Shown here piece by piece: positions 10,666 to 27,862 of a stretch of 64,000 nucleotides of DNA. A model generated the notes under the pieces. The model was not told where the DNA came from. It ran no database searches and worked only from the letters and a program-made list of their open reading frames with translations. The stretch is from Bacteroidia bacterium (GTDB lineage: Bacteria; Bacteroidota; Bacteroidia; AKYH767-A; 2013-40CM-41-45): contig JBBRND010000024.1 of the NCBI GenBank assembly GCA_038230515.1, positions 845 through 64,844 of the forward strand, given 5' to 3'. Position numbers and translations under genes: made by a program. Position 1 is the first letter of the stretch; each line of letters starts with the position of its first letter.

Positions 10666-11544
10666 ATGAATAAAATCATAAAAGAGTATTTAGAGTGGAA
10701 GGGGACTTACGCACCGAGAGCCAGTGTGAATTATAAAATTTGGCTTGACAGATTTGTAGAAGAGTGTGGTGAGAAACAACTTGACAGGTATGATGTATCT
10801 GACCTAGTAAAGTATCGCAATTGGGTGGAAGATCACTATAGTCCTTGCACAACTTCGCTGGCAATGGTTGTGATCAAAAATTTTCTTCAATTTTGTAAAA
10901 CACAAAATTACACCTGTCTCTCACCAACACTTGTCCGGCTGCCAAGAATAATTGCAAAATCTCATCGTGCTGTAACAGAGGACGAATTTCATAGAATCAT
11001 TTCTGTAATTCCTCAAAGTGAATTCATGTCGCTTCGAGATTTGCTCTTGATTCGCATGTTATGGGACACAGGAGTCCGTGTTTCGGAGCTTTGCGACCTA
11101 GATTTGTCTCAGATCAACGAAAATAAAAGATCAGCAGTTATTCAAACAAAAAAGACAGGAAAGAAACGAATTATTGTATGGTCTGAAGAGACACACAAAC
11201 TTCTTATGAAGTATGTACCAATGCGATTGGAGTTACACAAATTCAATCGTGCAAACGCACTCTTTATCGGATGGCGGAAGGGAAGGGGATGGAGTCTCCG
11301 GCTTACCACAAAAAGTGTACAAAGGACAATCAGATATTTTGTAGACCGAGCTGGCATCAAAGAAAAAATTACACCTCATAGTTTCAGGCATGGTTGGGCG
11401 CACAAGCGCAGAGATCAGAATGCTCCTCTTGCTTTTATTCAAAGGGGATTGGGTCACATAAATCCTATCTCAACTTTTGTCTACGAGCAATACAATGACT
11501 TGGAGTTTGAGAGAAATGCAAATACCTACTTAAAAGTAGCTTAA
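10666..11544 (+). CDS. Tyrosine site-specific recombinase (XerC/XerD-like small integrase)
   Basis: 292 aa. N-terminal SAM-like DNA-binding region. C-terminal catalytic motifs '...HSFRHGWAHKRRDQNAPLAFIQRGLGHINPISTFVYEQY' contain the R..H..R..Y residues. Confidence 0.8.
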   Translation: MNKIIKEYLEWKGTYAPRASVNYKIWLDRFVEECGEKQLDRYDVSDLVKYRNWVEDHYSPCTTSLAMVVIKNFLQFCKTQNYTCLSPTLVRLPRIIAKSHRAVTEDEFHRIISVIPQSEFMSLRDLLLIRMLWDTGVRVSELCDLDLSQINENKRSAVIQTKKTGKKRIIVWSEETHKLLMKYVPMRLELHKFNRANALFIGWRKGRGWSLRLTTKSVQRTIRYFVDRAGIKEKITPHSFRHGWAHKRRDQNAPLAFIQRGLGHINPISTFVYEQYNDLEFERNANTYLKVA

Positions 11545-11628
11545 TATTCCCAGCATATTCAATACTTTCGAACGGCATTTAAATAAAATGCCGTTTGCTT
11601 GTTTTTAATAACATAGGAACACTAGCCA

Positions 11629-14600
11629 TTATCGTGGTATTACTTTATACTTTGTGTCTCTTGTATCAAATGCTTCATAAGTTCCTTCCAAAATATCTAC
11701 CACTGTTTTATTGATAGTTGGATTTTCTAAGGCACCTGAATTGATTATTACTTTGTTCTTGTTGTGCTTCTCAATTTTAACATGAATGATTTGGTCTGCA
11801 TCACAAACAACGGCTAAGTTAGGGTTATGAGTCACAATAATGATTTGTCTTTTGTCCTTTGCTTTCTTGATAAACTGAGCAAGCAATTTGAAAACACTTT
11901 GGTTGTCCAAATTCTCTTCGGGTTGGTCAATCACTAGTGGAATATTGTTTTGGTCAAGTGCCAGATAAAAAATAAGAAGTAAAGCCCCTCGTTCTCCGGG
12001 GGACAATTCCGAAATATTTTTGTTGTTGAGTTTGAGTTTGTATGTCGGTTCTAAATATTCAAGCCCAAATAAAAAATCATAAAGTTCTTCCACTGAAAAA
12101 TCACTTTTCAACTGCTTTTCAATTTCTCTTTTTGGTCTGCCTAAACCTTCTCTCGTATCGTTTTTAAGATTATCAACTATGTCATCAAGCAAAGCAGTGA
12201 TTCCTTCTGCTGTTTTCCACTCATGCTGATTTAAAATTGAATTTAGTTTTTCTCTTCCCTCGGTAATTCCTATGAAACTGCCTTTTGCTCCTGCACTTAT
12301 TGGAGCAAAAAATCTATCTTCAAAAGCAGCCATTTTATTTTCAATGTCAAGTTTGATTTCATACTGTTCAAGAACTCCTCCGTAGCTTTCAATGAAGTCC
12401 GTTATCGGTTTGTAAAATGTTTTGTAAATATTCAGAATGTCATTTTTCTTTCCGAAAAGTTTTATCAGAATATCTTTTCTAAGAGTGGTTGCTTCTGAAA
12501 GGTCCGTCTTTAATTGTGTTTCAATGTATTTTAATTCTCCCTCGTAGTATTTCAAAGTTCCATATTGTTCTTCATCTCCTGTGATTGATTTTTCTATTGT
12601 TGTCCATTCAGCCAAATCATTTAAGTATTTCTGGAATTGCTTTGAAGGTTCATCTAATGTATTTTGAAGTATAGCTAACTGCTCTTTTAAAACCGATAAT
12701 TTTTTCGGCAAACTTTCTGTGTTGTTTAAATCTAAAAGTGTATTTATAGAAGTAAGTTCGCCTCTCAACTCTGTAATTTTTGAATTGATTTTATCACGGG
12801 TAATTTCAAACTTAATTACATCTTCAATATTTATTTCGTTTGCTGTTAGGGTTGGAGTAATTTCTCCTTTGATTTTTTGATACTGTGTTTCAAGTAAACT
12901 CAATGAACCTAAAATTTTTTCGAGCGAAGCGACAGAAACGTTAATCGCTTTCTGCTTGCCTGAACTTTCTGCAATTAATTTTTCTAAATCTGCCTGTTGT
13001 TTTCGTTTGGCTTCAATTTGAGCAGATACTTCTTTATTCTTCTCAACTATTTTAGGGTCACTTGGCGCTTCCTTTGCAGGAGTTTTGATTTGATTGTGTG
13101 CAAGCAAATCTTTTTTCTTCTGTTCCAAATTGCTTGCAAGTAGGTTCTTGTAAGAATCCGTATCTTTTTTTTCCAACTCAACAACTATTGCATTGGTCTG
13201 TTTTAAATCAAGCAATGTTTGGTCAATATCGTTCTGAATTGTATCTGTTCTGAACTTTGCTAACTCTTCTAAATTGTTCTTGCCAAATTTTTCTGCATCA
13301 GGAATGTGAGTGAAAATCACATTCCTTAATTCATCTTCAAAGTTCTCATGATTTTCATTGCACAATTTTTCAAGAAAACCTTGCGGAATGTATTTTACTT
13401 TTTCAATAGAAGTTGGATGAGGGTCGTTTGCTAAGTATTGTTCATCAGTTGTATTTGTTTCCCAAGTCAGATATGCATTGAAACTCTCTGCTCTGTTTGG
13501 TCTTGGTGCTCTGAATTTTGTTTTTCCCAGAAATGAAAAATCTCCACAATTTTGAGTGTTGCCAACTAAGCCAATGCAATCTGTCAATGCACTTTTTCCA
13601 TTTCCTTTGTTTCCGATTATTGCAACCAGTCCTGAATTGATTTCAACTTCTACATTTTCAAACCAAATTTCGTCAAGTCGTGAATCAGAAAGTTTTTGGA
13701 ACGAAAGTTTCTTGATGTATCGGTTGGGATTTTCATGCACTCGTTTTTTTAGTGGTGGCAAATCACCAACAAAAATTCTTGTGCTTTCATTTGCAACTTG
13801 TTTTAAGCCTTCAAAAGTTGTGTTTGCTTTTAGCCATGTAGAGCAATTACCAATTCTGTCTTTGTCTGCACTGTCAGAAAAATAATGTGCATCGCTGCAA
13901 TCAAGTAATTTATCATTTACATTTTGTTCGGTGAGTTTTTGTTTCTGCCTTTCATAACTGTCTGCACTTTCAAGTGCAGAGAAAACAAAATTTGCTTTGT
14001 TGATTACAGTTCGCTTTGTTCCTGGTGAACCGTCCCACCTCATTGTGTCCCACTCTGATTTTCCAACTGCTGTAAGAAACTTGTCCTTGAAAGTTGTTGC
14101 TTCTAGTTTTTGAAACAGAATTTCAAAATTGAAGGTTAAACTGTTGAAACCTGTTTTCAAATCTGAATCGCTGATTGACTTTGCAGATTTTTCTTTTACT
14201 TTTTTTCCAAGTTGAATAAGTGTGTCCGCTGTGACTATTTCATTAAAATCTTCTTCTGAACCATCAACATCAAACTTTAGTTTGTGTTGAACTGCATTCA
14301 AAAAATTTCTCTCAATTACATTTGCTGCAAGGGTGTCTGAAAAGATGATATGAAAATTTACTTTCTTCCAAGGGTCTTCTGAACCAAGTGAAGCAAATTT
14401 GTCAAGTCGTAATTCGATAACGGGAAGAATTAAATCAATGTTTTGCAATCTTCCTTTCAGTCTATACTCTAAAACTTTTCGATAGCCATCTAAAAATATA
14501 TAATCATTAATGCCAATCGCTTTAAATGTTGGCGGTAATTTTTCCAAATCAGTAATGAACTTTTCCCAAGCTGTTTCTGTGTCGCCACCATAACCTTGAA

Positions 14601-14676
14601 TAATCGAGCAAGGAGTATGAACATGCAAATCCCACTTACACCATTCTGACCCACGATGAAAATTTCTTTCGCTCAT
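11629..14676 (-). CDS. PHP-domain phosphoesterase fused to an SMC/ABC-type ATPase (Ppl-like single-gene defence candidate)
   Basis: N-terminal 'WDLHVHTPCS' and a later 'DCSDAHYF' His cluster, both PHP hallmarks. Walker A 'GNKGNGKS'. Long coiled-coil middle. ABC signature 'LSPGERGALL', Walker B 'LVIDQPEENLD' and His-switch 'VTHNP' at the C-terminus. Confidence 0.75.
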   Translation of the reverse strand: MSERNFHRGSEWCKWDLHVHTPCSIIQGYGGDTETAWEKFITDLEKLPPTFKAIGINDYIFLDGYRKVLEYRLKGRLQNIDLILPVIELRLDKFASLGSEDPWKKVNFHIIFSDTLAANVIERNFLNAVQHKLKFDVDGSEEDFNEIVTADTLIQLGKKVKEKSAKSISDSDLKTGFNSLTFNFEILFQKLEATTFKDKFLTAVGKSEWDTMRWDGSPGTKRTVINKANFVFSALESADSYERQKQKLTEQNVNDKLLDCSDAHYFSDSADKDRIGNCSTWLKANTTFEGLKQVANESTRIFVGDLPPLKKRVHENPNRYIKKLSFQKLSDSRLDEIWFENVEVEINSGLVAIIGNKGNGKSALTDCIGLVGNTQNCGDFSFLGKTKFRAPRPNRAESFNAYLTWETNTTDEQYLANDPHPTSIEKVKYIPQGFLEKLCNENHENFEDELRNVIFTHIPDAEKFGKNNLEELAKFRTDTIQNDIDQTLLDLKQTNAIVVELEKKDTDSYKNLLASNLEQKKKDLLAHNQIKTPAKEAPSDPKIVEKNKEVSAQIEAKRKQQADLEKLIAESSGKQKAINVSVASLEKILGSLSLLETQYQKIKGEITPTLTANEINIEDVIKFEITRDKINSKITELRGELTSINTLLDLNNTESLPKKLSVLKEQLAILQNTLDEPSKQFQKYLNDLAEWTTIEKSITGDEEQYGTLKYYEGELKYIETQLKTDLSEATTLRKDILIKLFGKKNDILNIYKTFYKPITDFIESYGGVLEQYEIKLDIENKMAAFEDRFFAPISAGAKGSFIGITEGREKLNSILNQHEWKTAEGITALLDDIVDNLKNDTREGLGRPKREIEKQLKSDFSVEELYDFLFGLEYLEPTYKLKLNNKNISELSPGERGALLLIFYLALDQNNIPLVIDQPEENLDNQSVFKLLAQFIKKAKDKRQIIIVTHNPNLAVVCDADQIIHVKIEKHNKNKVIINSGALENPTINKTVVDILEGTYEAFDTRDTKYKVIPR

Positions 14677-14769
14677 TTTGTACTGGTTTAAAATTAATTT
14701 CTTAAATTATTATTCGCACAATTTACACAAACTTAGATTTTAAAAATATATTTAGACTTTTATTTTAGC

Positions 14770-15114
14770 TTATAAAAGCTGAGAAATCTCTAGTCCATAT
14801 TTTCTGATCTCCGACATGAGAGGGGATTCAAGTTCAGCATATTCTGAAAGGGAAGCAGGGAAGGGCTCAATACGGGTATCAACTTTTCTTCGCTGCTTGA
14901 AAAGGTATTGCATTTCGTCAACGTTGTCGCTCCCGAACTTTGGTGAAACCACGCACACATCAATATCACTGGTTCCTGTTGCTTTATTTTTTGCATGAGA
15001 ACCAAAGACCACAAGCTTGCTGATAGGGATACCGCTGCGCTGTAAAAGCCTCCCGAATTGGAGAACCTTTTCCTGTACACCTTTATTCAATATGAACTCT
15101 GTTTTTTTATCCAT
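14770..15114 (-). CDS. Nucleotidyltransferase (MNT / MntA-like, Pol-beta superfamily)
   Basis: Motif 'VVFGSHAKNKATGTSDIDVCVV' (GS...D.D). Overlaps the HEPN gene by 28 nt. Confidence 0.75.
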   Translation of the reverse strand: MDKKTEFILNKGVQEKVLQFGRLLQRSGIPISKLVVFGSHAKNKATGTSDIDVCVVSPKFGSDNVDEMQYLFKQRRKVDTRIEPFPASLSEYAELESPLMSEIRKYGLEISQLL

Positions 15115-15479
15115 AAATATAAATTTGTTGTTTCACTGAAATATTTTTCAGTATAGGCCTCGGTTGCTTTCTTAAAAAACTTGAATTTGTAATCGTCATA
15201 CCGCGCTTTGATATTAAATGTATTGATCTCATCCATTAAATCAAGTTGCTCTTTTGAAAATGGAATTCCCGTCAACCCACTAAGCACAGATAAATTATGT
15301 TCATAGGGCGCCTGCTCTCCGGTTTTTTGCACTACTGCCGCTTTGAGAATTTTCTCAATCATCAGGTGGCAAAAGAAAAGAGAGTGTGAGAATCGTTTTG
15401 AAGAGAAAAGGGATTGAGCGGTTTTATAATCTTCTTCGGCACTTACGAGCCAATATTCAATTACATGACTTGCTTTCAC
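15087..15479 (-). CDS. HEPN-domain protein (HepT-like toxin partner of the MNT)
   Basis: 130-aa alpha-helical ORF with the 'AEEDYKTAQSL...HLMIEKILKAA' HEPN pattern, immediately upstream of and overlapping the nucleotidyltransferase gene. Confidence 0.65.
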   Translation of the reverse strand: MKASHVIEYWLVSAEEDYKTAQSLFSSKRFSHSLFFCHLMIEKILKAAVVQKTGEQAPYEHNLSVLSGLTGIPFSKEQLDLMDEINTFNIKARYDDYKFKFFKKATEAYTEKYFSETTNLYLWIKKQSSY

Positions 15480-16164
15480 ATGCTCATTGTAACACAGAGG
15501 ATAGGGGGAGGCAAGCGATCATTTCCACAGATGGGAATGCTTGCATCCGTTTTGGACTATGTTATACTCATGTCAGAAAGATTTTCTCAATGGGTTGAAA
15601 TATTGTGCAAATAGAAAGTATGCAATCCAATTTAATGTCGCACAATATATCTTAGGGAAAGTCAAGTTTGTTGAAAAATAAGGATGGAATCACTCGAAAT
15701 AGCCGTTGTGATTACATTTTCTTGTGTGTAGCGATCTGTGGAGTACAGGCAGCGATTTTCAGGATTCATTTAGGAAAGATTGGCATTGCCCGAAAGGGAC
15801 TCTCCGAGGCATCGGAGATGGAACGAACAATGCGAATTAAGTTAGACAACGGTTTGCGCAGCAGTGCAAGCCCGGCTCCATAGGTCGCTGTGCATAACAG
15901 CGGTCGTCATTATCAGCCAAACACACATTCAAGGAAACATGCAACTATTCAACATTTGCACAAAGAAGGACTATGAAAAAAACGGGGAACAAAAAACAAA
16001 GTGGTACAAAGTCGGAGTCATGAAGATAGCGGATAGCGGAAAAAAGTACATCAAACTTTTTCAGCAGCCGTCAACGGAATTCTTCGTCTTCGACAAAGAA
16101 GAAAATCCACAACAGGCAGAAGCGGGGAAGTAAAGCAACCCCTTATCAACCTAACAAAAACTGT

Positions 16165-16650
16165 ATGCAGCAATCGGGAACGACACCTGTACCCAATGTT
16201 CTTTTTGATTCCTGCCTGAAAGAATTAAAGTGCGCTGAACTCAAAGTGCTGCTTGTCATCATCCGGCAAACGCTTGGCTGGGCAGACAAACAAAGTGCTC
16301 TCGGTCGAAAGGAAATGGATTGGATTTCGGGGAGCCAGTTGAAAGTGAAAACCGGAAGTTCATCCCGCGCCATTTCAGCAGCAATCGAAGTGCTGATTAA
16401 AAAGGCACTCATTGAAGTTCTGGATGGACATGGAAATTTGCTTCATGATCCAACCATTCGTAAAGGAAGACAGCGCCTGTATTTCCGCCCTGCTTCAGTA
16501 CTTATCACACCTGTGGATAACGTGGGTATAAGCAGTGCATATCCCCTGCATTCAGAAAAAGCTTCTGCAAAAATTGCAGAGGGCTTCAGCAAAAAAATAA
16601 CTGGGCTTGCGCAAAAAATGCACATAACAAAAGAAACTCTACAAAAATAA
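16165..16650 (+). CDS. Phage/plasmid replication-initiator-like winged-helix protein (putative)
   Basis: 'LKELKCAELKVLLVIIRQTLGW...ISGSQLKVKTGSSSRAISAAIEVLIKKALI' resembles replisome-organiser / Rep N-terminal HTH domains. It sits directly upstream of a methylase/antirestriction module. Confidence 0.35.
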   Translation: MQQSGTTPVPNVLFDSCLKELKCAELKVLLVIIRQTLGWADKQSALGRKEMDWISGSQLKVKTGSSSRAISAAIEVLIKKALIEVLDGHGNLLHDPTIRKGRQRLYFRPASVLITPVDNVGISSAYPLHSEKASAKIAEGFSKKITGLAQKMHITKETLQK

Positions 16651-16762
16651 CTCTACAAAATTAGTAAGAATAAAAAAAAGAAAAATTCTTTTGCCTTTTG
16701 TCTTTGTCTTCATGAACACAAAAACTCGACACCTCTTTTTTCTTTTTGTTGTTTAACAATCC

Positions 16763-17107
16763 ATGAATTCAACTCGAAAATTATCAATCAACATGAAACA
16801 CAAAAACGCAACACCAAAAAATAATGATGACGAAACATTCCCCTTCACTTCCATCCACCTTGCAAAATTCAAGCGTGAATTGAAAGAAGCCGGAAGCTTC
16901 TTCAACCTCATGATTCAGAAAAAAGCACTCAGTAAAAAAATGGGAATGAAATACATTTCCCTGTACTACAATGCTGAAAAGTATAAACAGAAATTCCTGA
17001 CAAGAGAATATAAATCACTTCGTCCCATGTACGATACAGACATGCCGTACATCTTCTGGAGCGCGTTGCATGAAGCGCTCTTAAAAACCGAACCTGAAAG
17101 CGTATGA
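16763..17107 (+). CDS. Hypothetical protein translationally coupled (ATGA) to the Dam methylase; has a paralog fragment at 21490..21687
   Basis: The 4-nt overlap with the next start is read from the sequence. The C-terminal half aligns with the ORF at 21490. Confidence 0.45.
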   Translation: MNSTRKLSINMKHKNATPKNNDDETFPFTSIHLAKFKRELKEAGSFFNLMIQKKALSKKMGMKYISLYYNAEKYKQKFLTREYKSLRPMYDTDMPYIFWSALHEALLKTEPESV

Positions 17108-17889
17108 AGCCACCCCTGACCTACTACGGGGGAAAGCAAAAACTGTCGCAACTTATTCTGTCACTCATACCAAAGCACAACCTCTATTGTGAACCATTTT
17201 TTGGAGGCGGTGCAGTATTCTTTGCCAAAAGCCCTTCACAGATTGAGGTAATTAACGATACCAACGGAGACCTCATTACTTTTTACCGAGTAGTAAAAAA
17301 CAACTTCAAAAAACTACAGAAGGAAATACAGCCCACGCTGCACAGCAGGGAACACCACCAAGCGGCAAAGATTGTACTGGGCTATCCACGCCTCTTTGAT
17401 GAAATAAAGCGCGCCTGGGCGATCTGGACGCTTGCAAATGAAAGCTACGGCTCACGCCTTGATAACTCATGGGGCTATGACAGGAAGAAAAACACCTCGG
17501 CAAAACGGCTGCACCGCAAACGGGATAATTTCATTACGGATTACTCAAAACGATTAGAAGAAACAGAAATTGAAAATACCGATGCACTCAAAGTGATTGA
17601 GACTAGAGATAGCAAAGACAGTTTCTTCTACTGCGACCCACCGTACTTCAATTCTTCCAAAGGGCACTACCGGAATTACTCAGAAGAAGATTTTGAAAGT
17701 CTCCTGAAGTCGCTCTCCTCCATCAAAGGGAAATTTTTACTCAGCTCATATCCATCAGCTATTCTTCGCAAGTACATTCGAAAAAACCACTGGCATACCA
17801 AAGAAATTGAAATGTCGGTTGATATGACTGCGAAGTATCAATCGAACAAAAGAAAAACAGAAGTGCTGACTGCAAACTATCGGATGTGA
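17104..17889 (+). CDS. dam: DNA adenine methyltransferase (Dam-like N6-adenine MTase, D12 class; orphan)
   Basis: N-terminal 'YYGGKQKL...YCEPFFGGGAVFF...NDTNGDLITFY' and catalytic 'FFYCDPPY' motifs. Confidence 0.85.
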   Translation: MKPPLTYYGGKQKLSQLILSLIPKHNLYCEPFFGGGAVFFAKSPSQIEVINDTNGDLITFYRVVKNNFKKLQKEIQPTLHSREHHQAAKIVLGYPRLFDEIKRAWAIWTLANESYGSRLDNSWGYDRKKNTSAKRLHRKRDNFITDYSKRLEETEIENTDALKVIETRDSKDSFFYCDPPYFNSSKGHYRNYSEEDFESLLKSLSSIKGKFLLSSYPSAILRKYIRKNHWHTKEIEMSVDMTAKYQSNKRKTEVLTANYRM

Positions 17890-17981
17890 TAGTCGCAATC
17901 AAACGTTGATTTTTTTTACTGCAATTTTTTTCCGAAAAGATTTTTCATAACAGTTCTTTAAACAATTAAATCAAACTAAAT

Positions 17982-18881
17982 ATGGAAAATGCAAATCAAA
18001 CCGTTCAAACGCGTGATGTCTACGACATGGTCACTGAGCGCGTAATCACTCTTCTTGAAAAAGGAGTCGTGCCGTGGAAACAAACCTGGACTGAATCCGG
18101 TCTTCCGCAAAACCTCATTACCGGAAAGCCATACCGGGGAATCAATGTCTGGCTGCTCCTATCACTTGACTATCCGAAAAACTTCTTCCTCACATTTGCA
18201 CAAGCGAAAGAGTTAGGAGGGAATGTCAAGAAAAATGAGAAGGGACACCTGATTGTTTTCTGGAAGTGGATCGAGAAGGAAAACAAAGTCAGTCATGGGA
18301 TGGAGAAGATTCCTTTGCTGCGTTACTACAAAGTGTTTAACGTTGCGCAGTGTGAGGGTCTTCCTGAAAAAAAGATTCCCGAGACAACAAAACCCAATGA
18401 TCCGATTGGTGAATGTGAAAAGATCGTTGAACTCATGCCGAAGTGTCCTGAGATCAAGTTTACAGGCAGTCAGCCCTATTACAATCCAGTGCTTGACTTC
18501 ATCAACATGCCTAAGATAAAAGATTTCCAGAGTAGCGAAACCTACTACGAAACTCTTTTTCATGAGTTGGTACACAGTACCGGACATCAGAGCAGGTTGA
18601 ACCGAAAGGAGGTGACAGATTCCCGCTTTGGTAGCGCTCTGTATTCCATAGAGGAATTGACGGCTGAACTCGGTTGCTGCTACCTGAAGTCCTGTGCCGG
18701 TTTGAAAGAAGTTGTGCGGGATAACAACGTGGCATATTTGCAAGGGTGGCTGAAGAGACTACGTAGTGACAAGAAGTTCATTGTGTATGCAAGCGCACAG
18801 GCGCAACGTGCTGTTGATTTTATTCTGAATGTCATTCCTCGCAGCACTGATGAACCAATGGTAGAGGAGGTGTTATCATGA
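17982..18881 (+). CDS. ardC: ArdC-like antirestriction protein (ArdC-N ssDNA-binding domain + HExxH zincin domain)
   Basis: N-terminal 'VVPWKQTW...GKPYRGINVWLL' ArdC-N pattern. 'FHELVHSTGH' metallopeptidase motif. Confidence 0.75.
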   Translation: MENANQTVQTRDVYDMVTERVITLLEKGVVPWKQTWTESGLPQNLITGKPYRGINVWLLLSLDYPKNFFLTFAQAKELGGNVKKNEKGHLIVFWKWIEKENKVSHGMEKIPLLRYYKVFNVAQCEGLPEKKIPETTKPNDPIGECEKIVELMPKCPEIKFTGSQPYYNPVLDFINMPKIKDFQSSETYYETLFHELVHSTGHQSRLNRKEVTDSRFGSALYSIEELTAELGCCYLKSCAGLKEVVRDNNVAYLQGWLKRLRSDKKFIVYASAQAQRAVDFILNVIPRSTDEPMVEEVLS

Positions 18882-19099
18882 ATAATACATCAAGGAGTTC
18901 AACCGTATCAAAACGACTTTTGAAAGTGTATCGCGGACATTTCTGTTTGCGATTCGGTCACGTGTACAAATCGCATCCTGTAATTCGTCTCGGAGGAATT
19001 TATCTTTCCGCGCTTGATTTTCAGATTGGAGATGAGATTGAAGTTTATGCAGAGCGTGGCATGATTTTAATTACGAAGGTGGGTTCAGAAAGTGTTTGA
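18878..19099 (+). CDS. SymE-like (AbrB/SpoVT-fold) toxin family small protein
   Basis: 73 aa. 'PVIRLGGIYLSALDFQIGDEIEVYAERGMILITKV' matches the SymE/swapped-hairpin pattern. Overlaps the ardC stop (ATGA). Confidence 0.5.
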   Translation: MNNTSRSSTVSKRLLKVYRGHFCLRFGHVYKSHPVIRLGGIYLSALDFQIGDEIEVYAERGMILITKVGSESV

Positions 19100-19158
19100 A
19101 AAGTAAAGCCCGAGCAGTCGGGCTTTTTTAATACAATAAATCACAAAGGTCAAATACT

Positions 19159-19947
19159 CTAGTTTTTTTTCAGATTGAATTGGTAGTTGAGGTTTATATT
19201 GCAAATTTCCGTTGCGAGTATAACTAAGTAAAACCCGGGTACTGAATAGAAAATTGTTTTGTCACCATATCTATCTCTTATATCAGTACTATCATTAAAT
19301 TTTCGCCTAGTTACGTTTGATATGGATATTGATTCAAGAGTACCTTCCTTAAGAGCATATGATCTTAAAAATCCCCTATAGATAACATTCTCATTTTCTG
19401 ACTTTACCATTACATCAAGGAAAACAGCATCAATTTCAGGAATGTCCCTAAAGGTCACTTTTTTTTGAGTAAAATCTCTTCTATTCTCCTTAAAAAAAAC
19501 CGTTTGTCCGGTAAGTGTATAAAACCACGGATTTGCGAAACGAATTGACTTGAACTGTAAGTCTAAATTACATTCTCTAATCAGAACTCTAGAAAGCAAA
19601 CCACCGAATACTCCTACCAAACAAGTCAAGGAATTATACAGTATTATTTTTCCGAAACTTAATTTGATAGCATCCGAAATTTTATCATAGTTATTATTGC
19701 TCGGAGATGACCAAAGTAAGTTTATGACGTACTTAAAATTTATTTCACAAGAGGGGACGAGACTGTTTATGAAAAAAATAAATATTGAGTGTATAAAAAT
19801 TGAAACACCGACTATTTCACCAAGCTCTTGGAGTGCTGATTTCTTTAAGGATGAACGATCAAAATCTCCTGAGAAAAAAACAAAACTGAAAAGAAATCCA
19901 GGAAGGATTATTAAAAGGATTAGAAGAGTTGATGTTGCTAATGTCAT
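19159..19947 (-). CDS. Hypothetical multi-pass membrane protein
   Basis: 262 aa with several hydrophobic helices in the first ~120 aa. Coupled (ATGA) to the upstream 81-aa ORF. Confidence 0.45.
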   Translation of the reverse strand: MTLATSTLLILLIILPGFLFSFVFFSGDFDRSSLKKSALQELGEIVGVSIFIHSIFIFFINSLVPSCEINFKYVINLLWSSPSNNNYDKISDAIKLSFGKIILYNSLTCLVGVFGGLLSRVLIRECNLDLQFKSIRFANPWFYTLTGQTVFFKENRRDFTQKKVTFRDIPEIDAVFLDVMVKSENENVIYRGFLRSYALKEGTLESISISNVTRRKFNDSTDIRDRYGDKTIFYSVPGFYLVILATEICNINLNYQFNLKKN

Positions 19948-20189
19948 TGCGCGTGTTCAAGAACACGCGGGGGAGATTGCTTTTTTTTCCCTACTATTTT
20001 TTCTCCCTTTTCATTAATTGGAAAACCCTCCCTATCAACCTCATAGATGTCCATTGTATCATCGTCAATCTCCACAAGAAAAATGACATTATCCTTTTTC
20101 TCAGGATTAGACATATACTCAGTGAGCAGTTTTGCTTTGTAAGGATTGGATAACAACTTTACCACCCGATGACTGATAGGGTTCTTCAT
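19944..20189 (-). CDS. Hypothetical small acidic protein, first gene of a two-gene operon with the membrane protein
   Basis: 81-aa ORF with a 4-nt overlap with the downstream gene. Confidence 0.35.
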   Translation of the reverse strand: MKNPISHRVVKLLSNPYKAKLLTEYMSNPEKKDNVIFLVEIDDDTMDIYEVDREGFPINEKGEKIVGKKKQSPPRVLEHAQ

Positions 20190-20455
20190 ATTTTATACTA
20201 AAGAATAGAAAGCAAAATCTGGTCCAAATGAAATTTAAATCTCGGTTTAAAGGAGTAAGTTTTAGAAATAGACGTGTTGTTTTTTACAATTTCGGGTAAA
20301 TATAGTTTCGCAAAATCCAATTGTCAAGCCCTCAAATATCATGCAAATACAGAATTGATCCCAAATCATTGTAAATAAACGTAAAAACTTAATTTTTGTT
20401 TTAGAATTCTGGTAAGACCTTGAGAAATTACAGAATTCTGACTATTCAGGGTAGT

Positions 20456-20773
20456 TTACTTAGATTTCGATATTAAATATTTAGCCCTGACCAGAACCCA
20501 ATGATTCTGCCCAAATTTTTCTTTGATGTGCGACAATAATTTCTTTTGCAAAGTAAAGGCCAAGACCGGAGCCCCGGTATTAACTTTTCTTCCAGATCCC
20601 CGAGAAAATTTTTCGAATAGTTTAGGAATGTTCTCCTTGGAAATACCAATTCCGCTGTCGGAGATCGCGACCCAAATCTTCCCATTATTATAATGAGAAA
20701 GTTCAACTTTAATAAATCCTCTTTCTATGTACTTTATTGAATTGTCAATGAAGTTCAATAGGACCTGCCTCAT
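20456..20773 (-). pseudogene. Histidine-kinase HATPase_c fragment (gene remnant)
   Basis: 'ISDSGIGISKENIPKLFEKFSRG' G1/G2-box-like motifs with no upstream HisKA/sensor region. Only 105 aa. Confidence 0.45.
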
Positions 20774-20774
20774 T

Positions 20775-21218
20775 TTAACGGAGTCGGCACATTGATAAAA
20801 TAATGAACTCCTGATTTTTTGGAAGCAGAAAAAACTTCGTTATCCGGGGAAAGACATACCCGTAGAAATCCGCTCCTGCAAGTGCAGTATCCAAAAAATA
20901 AAACCGTGGTTTAGCAGGATCAGTCACGTCAAGTAGGAACGCTGACGGAGTAAACCCGTTCTCAAATAAAGATTCACTTTTCTTCGGCATCGGTATCAGG
21001 AATGTCTGCTGTCCGAAAAGAGTTCTGCAATTATCGAGTACCAGTTTCTCCATCTCCTTTGCTGATCGAAATTTCTCTTCGATAGGAGCATTGGAATGAG
21101 AATACTCTGTTGACAGTTGATGAAGTGTATTTCCTGAGAGGAGATACGATTGTCCTAAAATTACTTTCTCTGAAGAAAGCACTTGGCTGGTATCAGCCGT
21201 TGATTGCTCTTTTTTCAT
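20775..21218 (-). pseudogene. N-terminal fragment (147 aa) of a paralog of the 363-aa gene at 31688..32779, with the same conserved promoter region
   Basis: Protein aligns with residues 1-135 of the 31688..32779 product (MKKEQ...LDNCRTLFGQQT...RFYFLDT). The upstream DNA at 21219-21300 is homologous to 32780-32860. Confidence 0.5.
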
Positions 21219-21489
21219 AATAAATAGATTTTAAATTTTGAAGAAATTATCTTCAAAGATTTTATTCCATTTGTAAAAAATGCCAAGAGCAAAAATCAGT
21301 CTGAAGTATATTTAAAATTTTGTCCAGTGGAGGTGAAGGGAAGTGAACAAATAAAGCGATTGAAGCAAAAAAGTCGGATCATGTTAATCTGTGCCCAATA
21401 AAGTAGATTCGATTTAAATCTTACGGGCAATTAAACAATTCAGAAAACTACGATTTGAAATTACTGATGCAGGCAGCTTCCATAATCTC

Positions 21490-21687
21490 ATGATAAGCAA
21501 GCACGCTCTTGAAATGAAAAATGGCATGAAATATATCCTGCATTACTACGATACAAAAGGATACAAGAAAAAATATCTGGTCGGATTGTACACGCCGCTT
21601 CGTGATTTTTATAAGACTGACATTCTATTTCTCTTCTGGGATGAAATGCTGAGTGTCCTCGAAAAGATGGAAGCAGAACAAGTATGA
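21490..21687 (+). pseudogene. Fragment paralogous to the C-terminal half of the 16763..17107 ORF
   Basis: 'NLMISKHALEMKNGMKYILHYYDTKGYKKKYL...' aligns with 'NLMIQKKALSKKMGMKYISLYYNAEKYKQKFL...'. Confidence 0.4.
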
Positions 21688-22488
21688 AGCCACCCCTCAC
21701 GTACTACGGGGGAAAGCAAAAGCTAGCTAAATATATTTTACCACTCATATCTAAGCATAAGCTTTACTGCGAGCCGTTCTTTGGAGGAGGTGTTATCTTC
21801 TTCGCAAAGGAGCCATATGAAATTGAAGTTATCAATGACACCAATGGCGACCTGATCAATTTTTACAGTGTAGTCAAGAATCGTTTTAATGCCCTCAAGA
21901 AAGAAGTTAGGGTGACACTTCCGAGCAGAGAGCACCATCACACGGCAAAGCTTGTTATAGGTTATCCTACGCTCTTTAATGATGTGAAGCGCGCGTGGGG
22001 CAATCTGGACACTAGCGAATCAGAGCTATGCGTCTCGACTTGCTAACTCATCGGGCTTTGACCGGAAAAGAAATACTTCTGCAAAACGCCACTACCATAA
22101 GCATAAGAACTTCATTCGTGACTACTAAAAAAGGCTTGAACAGACCGAAATAGAAAACAGTGATGCAATACATGTCATCACCTCACGCGACAGCAAGAAC
22201 AGTTTTGTCTATTGTGATCCTCCCTACATCAATACGGACATGGGACATTATAAAAAGTATTCGAAACAGGATTTCGAAATCCTGCTACACACCTTGTCTT
22301 CAATCAAAGGAAAATTTTTGTTGAGTTCGTTTCATTCTCCATTACTCGCACGATTCACACAAAAAAATAAATGGAACACAAAGAAAATTGATATGCCTCT
22401 TAACGTGACAGCCAAATACAAAAGGCATAGCCGCAAGCAGGAAGTCATCACAACAAATTACCGACAGCCGGCTCGTTTGCAAAATTAA
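21684..22488 (+). pseudogene. Dam-like adenine methyltransferase pseudogene (frameshift near 22030 and TCA>TAA nonsense at 22127-22129)
   Basis: The first 120 aa are ~80% identical to the 17104 Dam. The reading frame is then lost. The downstream frame still encodes 'VYCDPPYINTDMGHYKK...', interrupted by 'DY*KRLE'. Confidence 0.7.
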
Positions 22489-23393
22489 CTGTAAAAGAGT
22501 TGTAGATTTCCTGATTTTCTCTTTGCAACATAGCAGGGAAAAGGATCAACATATCCAAAAGCAAACGTTTCCTTTGCTTCATCGCTACAATATGAATACA
22601 CTGTGACCTTTGAAACAGCAAACTGGAATTCCTGAATTTGCCCGTCAGTTAATTGAAAAGTGGAGTCCAGATGCAGTGTTAATTGTTCTTTTGGAATAGC
22701 ATCAGGACCCCCGACTGTGCGCACAGATAAATGTCCCGAGACTAATTGCCCGTCATACAGCTTCAGCCGCATATCATGCAAATTGCAATAAAAGCATAAT
22801 AAGATTTCATCACTATATTCTAATATTTTCGCACTATAGACGTCCTCAATATTTAGCTTTTTAGAGATTTCCCGCACTGTTAGAAAAAGGTCTGCAATAA
22901 GATTATCCTGCGTTAAGGCGGGTTTCGGGACTTTTGAAGTCATGGCCGCGATAAATAATTTTTCGAGCGTCAGTGCTTCGGCTAGATTCTGCAATTGGAA
23001 GATCGCGTCTGTTTGAGCGTATGCTGTCTTGATGAAGGCGATACCTTCATTCGAGGTCATACCGGTAACCATTTGAACTCGTAACGAATCAGATTCTGCA
23101 ACGGTGGACAACATAACCTCATAAACCTTTTTATTTATTTTATCTAAACTGATTACATTAAAAGCAACTTGTAATTGAATGTAAAACCTATCTATAAATT
23201 CCAATGAAATACCCCTATCCCTTTTATCTGGATGCGCCAGAAAGTTTGCGACTTCATAAAGTTCAATTCTGTGCCGACAGTATTGCCGAATATCAATCAG
23301 AAATAATCTTATATTTTCATCTTCGAATGTACGATCTCTGATTCGATTCAAGTTCCGAATAATCGACTCCGATAATTTTTTAGGGATATCCAT
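22485..23393 (-). CDS. Hypothetical protein (302 aa)
   Basis: Long clean ORF with no recognisable motif. It occupies the position where the first module copy carries ardC. Confidence 0.4.
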   Translation of the reverse strand: MDIPKKLSESIIRNLNRIRDRTFEDENIRLFLIDIRQYCRHRIELYEVANFLAHPDKRDRGISLEFIDRFYIQLQVAFNVISLDKINKKVYEVMLSTVAESDSLRVQMVTGMTSNEGIAFIKTAYAQTDAIFQLQNLAEALTLEKLFIAAMTSKVPKPALTQDNLIADLFLTVREISKKLNIEDVYSAKILEYSDEILLCFYCNLHDMRLKLYDGQLVSGHLSVRTVGGPDAIPKEQLTLHLDSTFQLTDGQIQEFQFAVSKVTVYSYCSDEAKETFAFGYVDPFPCYVAKRKSGNLQLFYS

Positions 23394-23478
23394 TTCATAA
23401 ATTTAAAAATTGCTCCAATGTAAGTCATTACTTTCTATTTCCATACTCAGTTCTTCAAACAATTAAATCAAACTCATT

Positions 23479-23694
23479 ATGGAAAATTCAAAACAGACTG
23501 CATCTCGCAGGCAGATGAAAGTGTATCGAGGACATTTCGTTTTAAAATACGGACGCGTATTCAAAGCGCATCCTGTCATTCGTTTGGGAGGCATCTATTT
23601 GTCTGCACTGGATTTTCAAATCTGAGATGAAATTGAAGTGAGTACATTGAGAGGAATAATTCTCATCACGAAAGTTCAGAGAAATTATGTCTGA
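23479..23694 (+). pseudogene. SymE-like gene remnant fused to the first codons of ardC (MENxxQT...) with an in-frame TGA at 23623-23625
   Basis: 'MENSKQTASRRQMKVYRGHFVLKYGRVFKAHPVIRLGGIYLSALDFQI*DEIEV' compared with the copy-1 'MENANQTVQ...' (ArdC start) and 'KVYRGHFCLRFGHVYKSHPVIRLGGIYLSALDFQIGDEIEV' (SymE). Confidence 0.5.
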
Positions 23695-23895
23695 TTTATA
23701 AAACAATGATATAGCTCGGTGAATCGTATTTATAAGTGGACATGTTATGTGTCCACTTTTTAGTTTTCCGTAGCTTTACTTATTAACATATCGAAAAATA
23801 ACGTAATGAACTTTAGATAGTTGGATTTGTTGATAAAAAAATTTGGTAAACGATAAATGATATTCGTACTTTTGTACACAAACAAACTAATGTAA

Positions 23896-24966
23896 ATGAG
23901 CAGTTTATTTTATAAAAAATTATCTACAGCAAGAAAGATGTCAGGACTTTCTCTGCAAGAATTAGCTGATAGAACTGGAGTATCAAAAAGCGCAATTTTC
24001 AAATATGAAAATAATGAAATGATGCCCGACAGCGCGTCCTTGATCCGGCTTTCTGAGATACTGGATGTAAACATGGGATATTTTTTTAACGATGAATTAT
24101 CTGGCAATATAGAATTAATCGATATTGAATACAGAGAAGAATTCAAGTTGGGTGATACCGAAATTGATACCATAAAAAAAAATGTGGAAAATTACCTTGA
24201 GCGTCTTTTCGAGTTAGAGAAAGTTGCGGATGTTGCTCCTGAAAGATTTAAAAATCCAGTCGAGGGAATACGAATAAAATCTGTGAGTGATGTGACAAAA
24301 GCAGTGAAGGTACTGAGAAGAAAATGGCAGATAGCAACCACAGCTATTTCTAATGTAATTGGTTTGATTGAAAGTAAAGGTATAAAAGTTTATCAAATTC
24401 TTCAGTCGGAAAAATTCGAAGGATTTTCTGCCTGGGCGGGTGAAGTGCCGGTAATTGTTGTCAATGGAAATATCCAAGAAGTAACTCGAGTGCGCTTCAC
24501 AGCACTTCATGAACTTGGGCATATTGTATTGTGCGTTGAAGATGATTTATCAGATGAGAAGATTGAAAGGATCTGTGATGCTTTTGCTGGTGCGATGTTA
24601 TTTCCAGATGACTTGGTTGTTGCTGAACTCGGGAGTAATAGAAAAAAAATTTCACTCGAAGAATTAAAGTTAGTAAAGGAGAAATACGGAATATCCATTC
24701 AGGCAATTATGGTAAGGGCAGCAAATGTTTCAATAATAAGCTGGGATACATACAATAAATGGAAACAATATTATTTATCGCTGACAGGAACTAATCAAGA
24801 TTTTGGAAAATTTAGTTCTGATGAATCCCCAAAAAGATTTAGTCAAATGTTGTTTAATTGTATTGCGGAGGAAAAAATTTCAATTGCCCGTGCTGCAGTG
24901 CTATCGGATAAAAAAATTAGCACTCTTAAAAAAGAAAAAATAATACATGAATGCTTCTACAATTAG
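23896..24966 (+). CDS. XRE-family HTH fused to an ImmA/IrrE-type zinc metallopeptidase (COG2856-like)
   Basis: N-terminal 'LSLQELADRTGVSKSAIFKYENNEMMP' HTH. 'ALHELGHIVL' HExxH motif in the C-terminal domain. Confidence 0.7.
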   Translation: MSSLFYKKLSTARKMSGLSLQELADRTGVSKSAIFKYENNEMMPDSASLIRLSEILDVNMGYFFNDELSGNIELIDIEYREEFKLGDTEIDTIKKNVENYLERLFELEKVADVAPERFKNPVEGIRIKSVSDVTKAVKVLRRKWQIATTAISNVIGLIESKGIKVYQILQSEKFEGFSAWAGEVPVIVVNGNIQEVTRVRFTALHELGHIVLCVEDDLSDEKIERICDAFAGAMLFPDDLVVAELGSNRKKISLEELKLVKEKYGISIQAIMVRAANVSIISWDTYNKWKQYYLSLTGTNQDFGKFSSDESPKRFSQMLFNCIAEEKISIARAAVLSDKKISTLKKEKIIHECFYN

Positions 24967-24972
24967 AAATAT

Positions 24973-25359
24973 ATGATTGCTATCTTTAATGACCCCGATG
25001 ACATAAGCCTTTTCCGCGCTTCCATCAGAAAAAATGATGGGAGTGAACTTGATTTTTTTGTTTCGGATTTGACACTACATGAACATGGGAAATCCTTTTT
25101 TCTCAACCTAAAAATTGAGTTCGTTAAGGAGGTTTCATTTAACGGAGGTGAGATGAAGAGCATCGTAAATTTGTACCATGAGAACAACAAAAATTATTCA
25201 ATCGGTAATTGCTCGAATTTATTTTTTGCCCAGCAACATCATGCCCTTATAATAACAAACGATGCGATAATTGTGGCTATTGCAAGAAAGTATCGTTTAG
25301 AAGCCATCTCCACAAAGTATCTCAAAAAAACTCTCAGATTAATTTCAATAAAACAATAA
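24973..25359 (+). CDS. Hypothetical protein downstream of ImmA/IrrE (possible PIN-like/DUF4411-type partner)
   Basis: 128 aa with 'HALIITNDAIIVAIARKYRLEAIS' near the C-terminus. Only weak resemblance to PIN-like folds. Confidence 0.3.
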   Translation: MIAIFNDPDDISLFRASIRKNDGSELDFFVSDLTLHEHGKSFFLNLKIEFVKEVSFNGGEMKSIVNLYHENNKNYSIGNCSNLFFAQQHHALIITNDAIIVAIARKYRLEAISTKYLKKTLRLISIKQ

Positions 25360-25663
25360 AAATAAAAAATATGAAATAAAAAACCGGCCCGAAGACCGGC
25401 TGTAATTTTGATCGTAAGTCTGAATTCAGAACTTTAGGAAGGTCACTGAATTCTGATGCAAAGAAAAGTATTCTTTCTTTACCAAACAAATCTTTTCAGC
25501 TTCATCGCCCGGGAAATCTCCCAAACCTGAATTCACCATTTGGCGTGAGCCAAATCTGTGGCTATAATTCATGTGCCCAAAATTATTTCTGTGAAAAGTT
25601 TCTGACGCTTGTAGCCTGCATTGAAATATTTCACTTTGTTTCAAATCAAAATTATTATTAAAA

Positions 25664-26107
25664 ATGAAAAATAATACAATTAAATTTATAATTAACGACA
25701 AGCATTTTGAATCCGATGAACAGTACATTCTAGGTGCTAAAGTTCGGGCAATAGGAAACATATCGAAGGATGATGAAATCTTCCTTGCTATCAAACGCCC
25801 GTGGGAAGACGAGTCAATTGCTGATGATACGAAAGTTGATTTAGCGCGTCCCGGTATTGAACATTTCTTCTCCAAAAAACATGGCGAAGAGAAGTTGGTT
25901 TCAATTTATGTTGACAACATCGAAAAGAAAATCTCACGTGGTAAACACTCCGTTGCTGAGATAAAAAAAATCGGTGGTGTTCCTGCTTCATATGAATTGG
26001 AAGAGGTAATTGATGGAAAGCTCACACCGCTTGATGACAACGCAGTAGTGCTAATTAAAGGGGGTGAAAAGTTTTTCGGTCATGTTCGCGATGGTTCCTC
26101 ATCTTAA
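25664..26107 (+). CDS. Multiubiquitin-domain protein (ubiquitin-like modifier of a Bil-like / 6E-type conjugation system)
   Basis: 147 aa, predicted beta-grasp-rich, ends in '...KGGEKFFGHVRDGSSS'. Directly followed by E2-like and JAB-E1 genes. Confidence 0.5.
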   Translation: MKNNTIKFIINDKHFESDEQYILGAKVRAIGNISKDDEIFLAIKRPWEDESIADDTKVDLARPGIEHFFSKKHGEEKLVSIYVDNIEKKISRGKHSVAEIKKIGGVPASYELEEVIDGKLTPLDDNAVVLIKGGEKFFGHVRDGSSS

Positions 26108-26115
26108 TTTCAGCT

Positions 26116-26451
26116 ATGAACTTTGACGAGAATCAAATTGCCGAGTTAAAGCAGATAACCCCTGACCTGAGTTGTGCTCAGGAAGGGGGTTATAACTACA
26201 TCTTAATAAAAGATCTTCGCTTGCCTGATAATTGCAAGCCCGAAGTGGTTGATGCATTGCTGTGTTCAACACCAAGAGATGGTTACGAGTCAAGATTATT
26301 TTTTTCTGCACTGATTACCGGATGCCACCAAAGGAATTGGAATGGAAACATTCGAGTGTTAGAAGGAAACTGGTATGCAGTTTCTTGGAAGGTTCCGGGC
26401 GGGCTGAAGCTTGCTGAGATATTAATGGTCCATCTTAAAGCATTACGATGA
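26116..26451 (+). CDS. Prokaryotic E2-like (UBC-fold) protein, putative
   Basis: 111-aa ORF with conserved Cys candidates ('LLCSTPRDGY', 'ITGCHQRNW'). Its stop overlaps the JAB-E1 start (ATGA). Confidence 0.45.
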   Translation: MNFDENQIAELKQITPDLSCAQEGGYNYILIKDLRLPDNCKPEVVDALLCSTPRDGYESRLFFSALITGCHQRNWNGNIRVLEGNWYAVSWKVPGGLKLAEILMVHLKALR

Positions 26452-27852: not shown

Positions 27853-27862
27853 GTAGCATGAC

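Follow-up and report, generated by a model that had tools for sequence, protein, structure and literature searches.

A probable integrative element carrying Dam and ArdC genes, and the probable remnant of a second member of its family, in a defence island of a Bacteroidia bacterium

Several described mobile elements and proteins resemble parts of the locus treated here. For the tycheposons of Prochlorococcus, tandem integration with degenerated remnants has been described (bioRxiv 10.1101/2020.12.28.424599), and the antirestriction protein ArdC of plasmid R388 binds single-stranded DNA (ssDNA) and counteracts type I restriction in the recipient (PMC7213743). The present locus lies in a stretch of 64,000 nucleotides from a Bacteroidia bacterium (GenBank assembly GCA_038230515.1, contig JBBRND010000024.1, positions 845 to 64,844 of the forward strand), the whole of which is referred to as the window. 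Two related gene sets are found in it: copy 1, with genes for an O-like replication protein (RepO-like), a small open reading frame (ORF), a Dam-class methyltransferase, ArdC and a SymE-like protein, and copy 2, which retains parts of the same set. A first-pass annotation had described them as a mobile-element-derived anti-restriction module and its decayed tandem duplicate. The comparison with related loci makes it probable that copy 1 is the core of a site-specific integrative element of a Bacteroidota family, and that copy 2 is what is left of another member of that family, acquired independently.

The window was compared with sister loci (numbered L001-L059) drawn from Bacteroidota genomes and metagenomes. 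Dam relatives, sought in one genome per species, gave 33 loci, and the order of the family was read from tblastn searches and ORF clustering across related loci. All ORFs named in the first-pass annotation are present where it had placed them, and most of its family assignments stand, but it had left out a conserved 64-aa gene at the start of the module (15939-16133). The backbone and core genes of copy 1, all on the plus strand, are the following.

10666-11544, plus strand: tyrosine integrase Int292, the first gene of the element (Pfam Phage_integrase, PF00589, E 8e-27).
15728-15892, plus strand: structured element of 165 nt, ending 46 nt before orf64, with a copy of the GGAACGAACAA motif at 15778-15840.
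15939-16133, plus strand: orf64, 64 aa, which opens the module (family range 61-76 aa).
16165-16650, plus strand: RepO-like winged-helix-turn-helix (wHTH) protein, 161 aa (Pfam Phage_rep_O, PF04492, 30.7 bits, cut-off 28.7).
16763-17107, plus strand: small ORF, 114 aa as listed (104 aa according to NCBI), with an ATGA overlap with Dam.
17104-17889, plus strand: Dam-class methyltransferase, intact (Pfam MethyltransfD12, PF02086, E 7.4e-29, residues 7-234).
17982-18881, plus strand: ArdC, intact (ArdcN, PF08401, E 2.9e-29, residues 12-119; MPTase-PolyVal, PF18818, E 1.2e-32).
18878-19099, plus strand: SymE/AbrB-like protein, 73 aa, with an ATGA overlap with ardC.

The backbone order of integrase, structured element, orf64, RepO-like gene, small ORF and Dam recurs in more than 20 Bacteroidota loci. 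It was read in L001-L005, L008, L009, L012 and L033, while L049 and L051 carry the complete succession of Int, orf64, RepO, small ORF, Dam, ArdC, SymE, cargo and a DUF5655 gene in reverse orientation. Dam-ArdC-SymE is likewise found in L001 and L052; L045 represents a Dam-less variant with ArdC right after the small ORF, and an extra N6_N4 methyltransferase gene precedes the small ORF in L002 and L051. Full-length orthologues of Int292 (58-82% identity) stand also 5' of orf64 in L045, L049, L051, L055, L058 and L059; a tyrosine integrase is thereby found at one end, as in integrative elements, and its position is kept in the sister loci. The structured element itself was found in about 20 of these, and the orthologues of orf64 (40-89% identity) are always the first gene after it. 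Conversely, the cargo differs in every locus and is largely made up of defence genes. Gabija follows the backbone in L004, a VCH_CASS14 integron-cassette protein and a HATPase protein in L002, and PAPS_reduct/DndB (Dnd-like) in L051; an MNT/HEPN pair lies between int and orf64 in L051 and the window, and a reverse DUF5655 gene lies downstream of the cargo in L004, L005, L049 and L051. The left flanks vary (ribH in L051, a CBASS island in L045, other genes in L049). On the right, the window, L033 and L049 all have tRNA-Leu(taa) and tRNA-Gly(gcc) as neighbours, and in the window and L049 mutS comes next; the anticodon of the tRNA-Leu at this shared site is UAA, and L008 abuts a tRNA-Asn gene. 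Variable cargo in differing genomic contexts is again what characterizes integrative elements. The mobile-element origin proposed in the first-pass annotation is thus borne out by the integrase and the conserved backbone order, but its picture of an element captured inside a defence island likely has the direction reversed, since the sister backbones carry Gabija, Dnd-like and HEPN/MNT systems as cargo. A search of the literature found no described Bacteroidota element with this backbone.

The individual gene products of copy 1 were assigned with differing firmness. The RepO-like protein matches PHROG 678 ('replication initiation O-like', E 7e-14), and its residues 9-91 share 38.6% identity with an O-like protein of Pasteurella phage. 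The PF04492 match is limited to residues 4-85 and covers the N-terminal origin-binding wHTH domain; the C-terminal helicase-loader-recruiting domain of the lambda O type was not found in this 161-aa protein, and a search for iterons around its gene (15480-17110) gave none that were convincing, only weak two-copy repeats. Of the earlier label 'Rep', the N-terminal wHTH of O-like initiators therefore stands, but the full initiator with iterons does not. No match was obtained for orf64 in Pfam, NCBIfam or PHROG. The small ORF keeps its place directly 5' of Dam, or of ArdC in L045, and has 12 relatives among 5.8 billion proteins, all unnamed; its AlphaFold2 (AF2) model is helical, but at pLDDT 60 its confidence was too low for searching folds. 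Dam has both the EPFFGGG motif for AdoMet and the catalytic CDPPY motif of D12 enzymes, although its TIGR00571 dam score of 97.9 is below the cut-off of 114.85, and its closest solved relative is the GATC enzyme M.DpnIIA (2DPM, E 3e-16). With the small helical ORF and ArdC as neighbours and no nuclease family match adjacent, it is an orphan, and its earlier identification as an orphan Dam-class N6-adenine methyltransferase is upheld by the D12 match, the motifs and the lack of an endonuclease partner. GATC is under-represented alike inside and outside the island (observed/expected 0.5-0.7), which gives no pointer to the specificity of Dam.

The identification of ArdC proved equally sound. Residues 11-281 align with residues 7-284 of R388 ArdC (PDB 6I89/6SNA) over the full length (E 4e-51), HELVH aligns with HEATH of 6I89, keeping the HExxH zincin motif, and the protein matches PHROG 7245 ('anti-restriction protein', E 3e-76). 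Both the N-terminal ssDNA-binding ArdcN domain and the C-terminal zincin metalloprotease domain are present. The assembly index, queried for exactly this protein, had no record of it. The SymE-like protein scores 18.4 bits against Pfam SymE_toxin (PF08845), below the cut-off of 29, and 16.5 bits against MazE. A precomputed PF08845 match is found in 11 of 15 close relatives, which places the protein at the edge of the family. The resemblance to SymE previously claimed holds at the Pfam level, below threshold, whereas its reading as a toxin goes back solely to that resemblance. The ATGA overlaps that had been said to link the last four genes are present between the small ORF and Dam (17104-17107) and between ArdC and SymE (18878-18881), the latter being common to L001, L049, L050 and L051, with a short gap in L052. 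Between Dam and ardC, however, there is no overlap but a 92-bp spacer (Dam ends at 17889, ardC starts at 17982).

The phage-type matches raise the question of whether both copies are remnants of temperate-phage early regions (int, O-like initiator, Dam and ArdC) whose structural genes were deleted and replaced. The Phage_rep_O and PHROG O-like initiation matches, the match to PHROG 7245, the O-like relative in Pasteurella phages and the Dam relatives found at 51-58% identity on seven IMG/VR viral contigs of 6-43 kb would all agree with such an origin. However, those viral contigs are without orf64, RepO, the small ORF, ArdC and SymE, and searches of IMG/VR returned neither a relative of the RepO-like protein nor a match to the structured-element pattern; a PLSDB plasmid search with the RepO-like protein gave no match either. 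Furthermore, more than 20 loci share the compact order without structural, lysis or packaging genes, which would be unexpected from independent decay of prophages. A phage origin of this kind is consequently considered very unlikely, and a family of integrative elements remains the preferred reading of the backbone.

Copy 2 consists of the following features.

21418-21687, plus strand: small ORF of copy 2, 5'-truncated; no stop interrupts the frame from 21418 on, and a start codon first occurs at 21490.
21684-22488, plus strand: Dam pseudogene with a +1 frameshift and a TAA codon; FGGG and DPPY are still readable.
22485-23393, minus strand: 302-aa gene (r302), within the Dam-ardC spacer of copy 2.
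23438-23694, plus strand: ardC 5' region fused to the SymE-like gene; fusion gene 23479-23694, with a TGA codon inside.

Pairwise alignment showed that the two regions are homologous at the DNA level, with 68% identity between 17102-17837 and 21682-22418 (E 1e-69) and 75% between 18921-19080 and 23516-23675. The small ORF of copy 2 aligns with residues 35-114 of its copy-1 counterpart (47.5% identity by tblastn), with homology from about 21418-21445, and its ATGA overlap with the Dam pseudogene is still there (21684-21687). A recognizable homologue is therefore kept, as the first-pass annotation had it, but the start and the N-terminus are lost. The pseudogenization of copy 2 is likewise confirmed, and three lesions can be read: one extra G in a GGGG run ending at 21999, which shifts the Dam frame, a TCA to TAA change at 22126-22128 in the same gene, and a GGA to TGA change at 23623-23625 in the SymE-like gene. 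Two independent Logan assemblies, each made from its own sequencing run (SRR19962015 and SRR24807096), are 100% identical to the segment 20485-25393, frameshift and nonsense codons included; consequently, the lesions are not errors of one assembly.

The missing ardC can be traced at its junction. A stretch of 61 nt (23438-23498) is 85-88% identical to 17942-18001, which comprises the ardC upstream sequence and the first 7 codons, and the same upstream sequence and the M-(E/N)-x-x-N-Q-T start are found in ardC of L001, L049 and L051. The retained sequence thus originates from ardC and not from symE. The ardC-symE junctions of L001 and L049-L052 moreover point to Dam, spacer and ardC-symE as the ancestral order. 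As read from the aligned sequences, copy 2 lost ardC through an in-frame deletion, and the fusion of the ardC start to symE, already seen in the first-pass annotation, is real in that the leader and about 7 first codons are kept in frame. A terminator-like hairpin (23734-23758) stands 3' of the copy-2 SymE-like gene. The 302-aa gene, by contrast, does not occupy the ardC position that had been assigned to it. It is encoded on the minus strand in the Dam-ardC spacer, upstream of the kept ardC 5' remnant. A word-indexed search of 5.8 billion proteins returned only the 302-aa protein itself; at E<1e-3, its family comprises 118 representative clusters of proteins about 300 aa long, with 22-34% identity, and no Pfam family among 51 members. 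The AF2 model is of high quality (pLDDT 92.7, pTM 0.89), and it found no fold match in PDB or BFVD. The nearest relative is found in L045, just outside the sister element, where it separates the left end of the latter from a CBASS operon. The 302-aa gene is real, and belongs to an uncharacterized family associated with these islands.

The relation between the two copies was assessed from the genes that they share. Dam of copy 1 is 78.5% identical to that of L001, 75.1% to L002, 72.8% to L003 and about 71.5% to L049 and L051, as against 67.3% to copy 2. Similarly, the small ORF of copy 1 has 66% identity to the best other genome and 44% to copy 2, and the SymE-like protein 74.6% and 68.6%, respectively. 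In a simple neighbour-joining tree without support values, Dam of copy 2 falls outside the group of copy-1 Dam, L001 and L002. Between the two Dam genes, the synonymous difference is saturated (pS 0.90) and the non-synonymous difference is low (pN 0.19, pN/pS about 0.2), which indicates that most of their divergence arose under purifying selection on both genes. It follows that the three inactivating lesions are late. These observations have to be set against the history in which a single anti-restriction module gave rise to a tandem duplicate in this genome, followed by decay of the second copy, as the first-pass annotation had assumed. The regions are indeed separated by 4.6 kb and agree in strand and gene order, with 68-75% DNA identity and the 61-nt stretch at 85-88%. 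However, for each of the three shared genes, copy 1 has relatives elsewhere that are closer than copy 2, saturated pS with pN/pS of about 0.2 speaks for a long evolution under selection whereas only three lesions speak for recent inactivation, none of the sister loci has two Dam copies, and the cargo beside the two copies in the window is unrelated. Duplication in place is therefore regarded as highly improbable. Copy 2 is probably the remnant of a separately acquired relative, diverged by about one third, and not an in-place copy.

The ends and the cargo of the copy-1 element are given by the features below.

10385-10665, plus strand: left end of the element, non-coding, with the motif at 10442-10505 and a terminator-like hairpin at about 10629-10655 directly before int.
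11629-15479, minus strand: defence cargo between int and the orf64 leader, namely TrlF (11629-14676), MNT (14770-15114) and HEPN (15087-15479).
19159-21293, minus strand: right-hand cargo and end of the element, with a 262-aa gene, an 81-aa gene, a HATPase_c fragment and a DUF5655/PDC-S18 fragment.
20456-20773, minus strand: HATPase_c fragment of 105 aa (E 1e-14), which abuts the truncated DUF5655 gene.
20775-21218, minus strand: DUF5655/PDC-S18 N-terminal fragment r147, 147 aa, with its upstream region reaching to 21293.

The left end is 72% identical at the DNA level to the integrase upstream regions of L045, L049 and L051, with similarity starting at about 10385-10400. The conserved sequence thus begins about 270 bp upstream of the integrase gene, and it follows ribH in L051 and a CBASS operon with an r302-like gene in L045. 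A strong terminator-like hairpin (11569-11597) follows int. The distance between int and orf64, which is about 300-700 bp of non-coding DNA in most sister loci, is occupied in the window by a TrlF-family PHP/AAA ATPase (NCBIfam TrlF_fam_ATP, E 6e-191) and an MNT/HEPN pair (Pfam NTP_transf_2 and HEPN); the same pair is present at the same place in L051 (75% and 69% identity). On the right-hand side, no family match was obtained for the 262-aa and 81-aa genes. The HATPase_c fragment corresponds to the C-terminal end of a sensor-kinase-like cargo protein (800 aa) that is encoded downstream of Dam in L009, and is thereby marked as another decayed cargo gene. Taken together, the element of which copy 1 is probably the core spans about 11 kb (about 10385 to about 21300) and looks intact, lacking only a whole DUF5655 gene. 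Left of this element, defence genes for AbiGi and a 315-aa partner are located at 7793-9510 on the minus strand.

Further to the right, the island continues with cargo and DUF5655 sequences.

23896-28076, plus strand: putative second element, probable cargo and right end, with an HTH and ImmA/IrrE regulator, a 128-aa ORF and Multi_ubiq/111-aa/ThiF(E1) genes.
27817-28076, minus strand: DUF5655 3' remnant of 260 bp, similar to 31642-31901 at 82%.
28217-32893, no single strand assigned: cargo end of a possible third element, with TIR, a 466-aa ORF, Schlafen/AlbA_2 and DUF5655.
31688-32779, minus strand: intact DUF5655/PDC-S18 gene, 363 aa, with its upstream region reaching to about 32893.

The genes at 23896-27783 match Pfam HTH_3 and Peptidase_M78, Multi_ubiq and ThiF, with PADLOC hits to RmrA (CapH-CapP-like, E 2e-45) and E1-E2, and this probable defence cargo of copy 2, an ImmA-type regulator and a ubiquitin-like system, looks intact. 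A similar Multi_ubiq/ThiF/BubE system was observed in L049 between the element and tRNA-Leu. The block at 28217-32893 matches Pfam TIR_2, SLFN_AlbA_2 and DUF5655, as well as PADLOC PDC-S18 (E 1e-14). Three copies of DUF5655 are hence found in the window: the N-terminal fragment (20775-21293), the 3' remnant (27817-28076) and the intact gene. The fragment r147 shares 62% identity with residues 1-131 of the 363-aa protein, a DNA repeat joins 20958-21293 to 32513-32856, and the region upstream of the intact gene matches L049 at 10926-11036. Over its first 115 nt or so, the 3' remnant does not differ from the intact gene, a sign that modules of the island may recently have recombined or undergone gene conversion. 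No further fragments of an Int292-type integrase, orf64 or RepO were found in the window. The order of these parts suggests three elements in a row, of which the first would be intact apart from DUF5655, the second decayed, and the third reduced to cargo and DUF5655.

At the right, a second and unrelated tyrosine integrase of 471 aa (Int471-type, 40070-41485) with a conserved 115-aa partner (39709-40056) adjoins tRNA-Leu at 41656-41740. Homologues are found in L033 (with the partner, next to tRNA-Leu), in L053 (with the partner) and at the right edge of L051, where the partner is partly matched and no tRNA was detected in the DNA that was retrieved. Elsewhere in the window, a tandem array of 21-nt (7-codon) units occupies 56389-56690 within an 807-aa ORF (56361-58784); it is unrelated to the element.

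Several points weigh against the reading of two independently acquired integrative elements. A search by k-mers and whole-window repeats for attachment (att) direct repeats or tRNA fragments at the proposed boundaries (10.0-10.7, 21.2-21.5 and 32.9-33.7 kb) found none beyond chance: neither a repeat of the tRNA-Leu 3' end nor junction repeats of at least 12 nt were seen, although short or degenerate att sites could be missed. This leaves the element's right boundary and the target site of Int292 undefined, and the Int471-type integrase may be the enzyme that targets the tRNA. Among the ORFs scanned (about 5-41.5 kb), there was no relaxase or MOB gene, which together with or in place of oriT defines integrative and mobilizable elements (IMEs), and no terS, capsid or packaging gene was identified; oriT was not searched by model. 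The RepO-like protein, with its wHTH only and no iterons, may be a regulator rather than an initiator. The putative second and third elements are recognized only from the DUF5655 repeats and from the way the genes are arranged in L049 and L051. Finally, Dam of copy 2 sits on a long branch of a tree that is a simple one, and faster decay could overstate its distance.

The structured element upstream of orf64 was characterized separately. The segment 15728-15892 folds with a minimum free energy of -64.9 kcal/mol on the plus strand (z -5.1) and -49.6 kcal/mol on the minus strand (z -3.4). In an alignment of 16 sequences, 94% of the cells are paired, compared with 30-41% in slid controls, and 14 pairs show compensatory changes, a number reached by none of 500 shuffles. 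Eight of the 11 pairs of helix 2 covary, and one invariant G·U pair fits the plus strand only. A search with a pattern of the closing stem recovered 11 further copies from metagenomes, whereas viral contigs gave none; 10 of these stand directly upstream of an orf64 homologue and the eleventh is at the extreme end of its contig. As the closing stem was part of the search pattern, the inner helices alone constitute independent evidence. The inner part recurs 5' of the integrase, at 10442-10505 in the window and in L045, L049, L051, L055 and L058. This inner motif of about 60 nt comprises a CRTTG/CAAYG stem, a CCC/GGG hairpin, a covarying hairpin and the invariant unpaired GGAACGAACAA. In the int-proximal copy, GGAACGAAC (10485-10493) is complementary to GTTCGTTCC (10637-10645), which lies within the terminator-like hairpin whose end is 11 nt upstream of the start codon of int, and the fold of the int upstream RNA (-86.5 kcal/mol, z -4.6) includes the pairing of GGAACGAAC with GTTCGTTCC. 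Rfam searches of the whole window at the gathering threshold, and of both structured regions at E up to 10, returned only tRNAs and noise. A sigma-70 promoter scan gave fewer matches than shuffled sequences, as expected for Bacteroidota, and was not used.

The structured element is accordingly a candidate RNA leader, non-coding RNA or ssDNA structure. A leader or attenuator shared by int and the orf64 operon would be the most economical guess, with a protein-binding site or an ssDNA structure as alternatives. In its widest form, the proposal is that the backbone defines a compact family of Bacteroidota integrative elements, undescribed as far as could be found, that stacks defence systems at tRNA-linked hotspots and holds int and orf64-RepO under a shared riboswitch- or attenuator-like switch coupling excision and replication to one signal. 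This combination is put forward tentatively, as something possible rather than probable.

A mechanism can be outlined on the assumption that two independently acquired elements are present. The integrase would insert the element site-specifically, and the O-like wHTH protein, together with orf64, would bind the element's DNA for replication or regulation after excision. Dam would pre-methylate this DNA and ArdC would shield it upon entry into a restricting host, roles that would make both of them establishment functions of the element rather than host defence; the small ORF and the SymE/AbrB-like protein would act as their translationally coupled partners. Elements of the same family would integrate side by side, and redundant mobility and establishment genes would decay while the defence cargo persists, so that an island is built. 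For copy 2, the part from integrase to RepO would have been lost through a deletion ending inside its small ORF. In addition, ardC would have been deleted in frame and the unrelated 302-aa gene gained in the Dam-ardC spacer, with the one frameshift and two nonsense mutations as the most recent changes. The third DUF5655-terminated block, with TIR and Schlafen-like genes, may reflect a further round of the same process.

The mobility step could be refined further, without contradicting this outline, if the elements were phage satellites (like PICIs, the phage-inducible chromosomal islands, or PICMIs, phage-inducible chromosomal minimalist islands) or conjugatively mobilized islands that sense a helper, replicate after excision and use ArdC and Dam for entry. 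The compact combination of int, O-like gene and defence cargo resembles satellites and tycheposons, ArdC is typical of DNA that enters single-stranded by conjugation (PMC7213743), and the structured element of the coding strand could serve as an ssDNA origin or a regulatory RNA. On the other hand, the scanned ORFs yielded no terS, capsid or relaxase gene, no oriT-like nick region was seen (no model search was made for one), and none of the elements turned up in the viral contig collection. This refinement is judged rather unlikely.

Taken singly, an orphan Dam, an ArdC, a SymE-like gene and pseudogenes are ordinary content of mobile elements, and their value here lies in the context. The locus may show how a Bacteroidota defence island is assembled, with related small elements stacked at one hotspot, in a phylum whose mobile-element and defence biology is poorly charted. 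Moreover, orf64, the small ORF and the structured element provide a marker set for finding such islands and new defence cargo, and the paired motif found ahead of both int and the replication-type operon may represent a novel cis-regulatory RNA carried by a mobile element.

The comparison with known systems can now be drawn gene by gene and for the element as a whole. R388 ArdC (IncW plasmid; PDB 6I89/6SNA; PMC7213743) shares with the ArdC of the window both domains, the HExxH motif and full-length homology. Unlike the plasmid gene, ardC of the window lies in the chromosome, as part of a small probable integrative element that has no conjugation genes close by, and the activity of its product is predicted from sequence; it is also translationally coupled to the SymE/AbrB-like gene, a coupling that R388 ardC is not known to have. 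The orphan D12 Dams of phages and mobile elements (M.DpnIIA 2DPM, E. coli and T4 Dam) are alike in the whole-protein D12 match, FGGG, DPPY and the lack of an adjacent endonuclease, whereas the Dam of the window falls under the TIGR00571 cut-off and is, within its family, always preceded by the family-specific small ORF with an ATGA overlap. Likewise, E. coli SymE (a type I toxin with an AbrB-like fold, PF08845) resembles the present protein in its small size and in a weak PF08845/MazE match, but the protein of the window scores below the Pfam cut-off and is encoded by the distal gene of an ardC operon. Among Bacteroidota IMEs, NBU1 and Tn4555 (class: PMC5704250) are also small, integrase-bearing chromosomal elements without their own conjugation machinery; they differ in that no relaxase was found here among the scanned ORFs (oriT was not searched by model), and their backbone is unrelated by name and family. 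A likeness in organization is offered by the Prochlorococcus tycheposons and PICI-like islands (bioRxiv 10.1101/2020.12.28.424599), which share a terminal tyrosine integrase, a small replication-type module, variable cargo, a position beside tRNA genes, and islands in which several elements adjoin degenerated remnants. The window differs from them in the absence of detected partial tRNA repeats, in that its intact element is the one farthest from the tRNA, and in that its mobility is one that we infer. It belongs to another phylum, and an O-like wHTH protein, Dam and ArdC take the place of primase and helicase, so that the two are set apart by names and family assignments.

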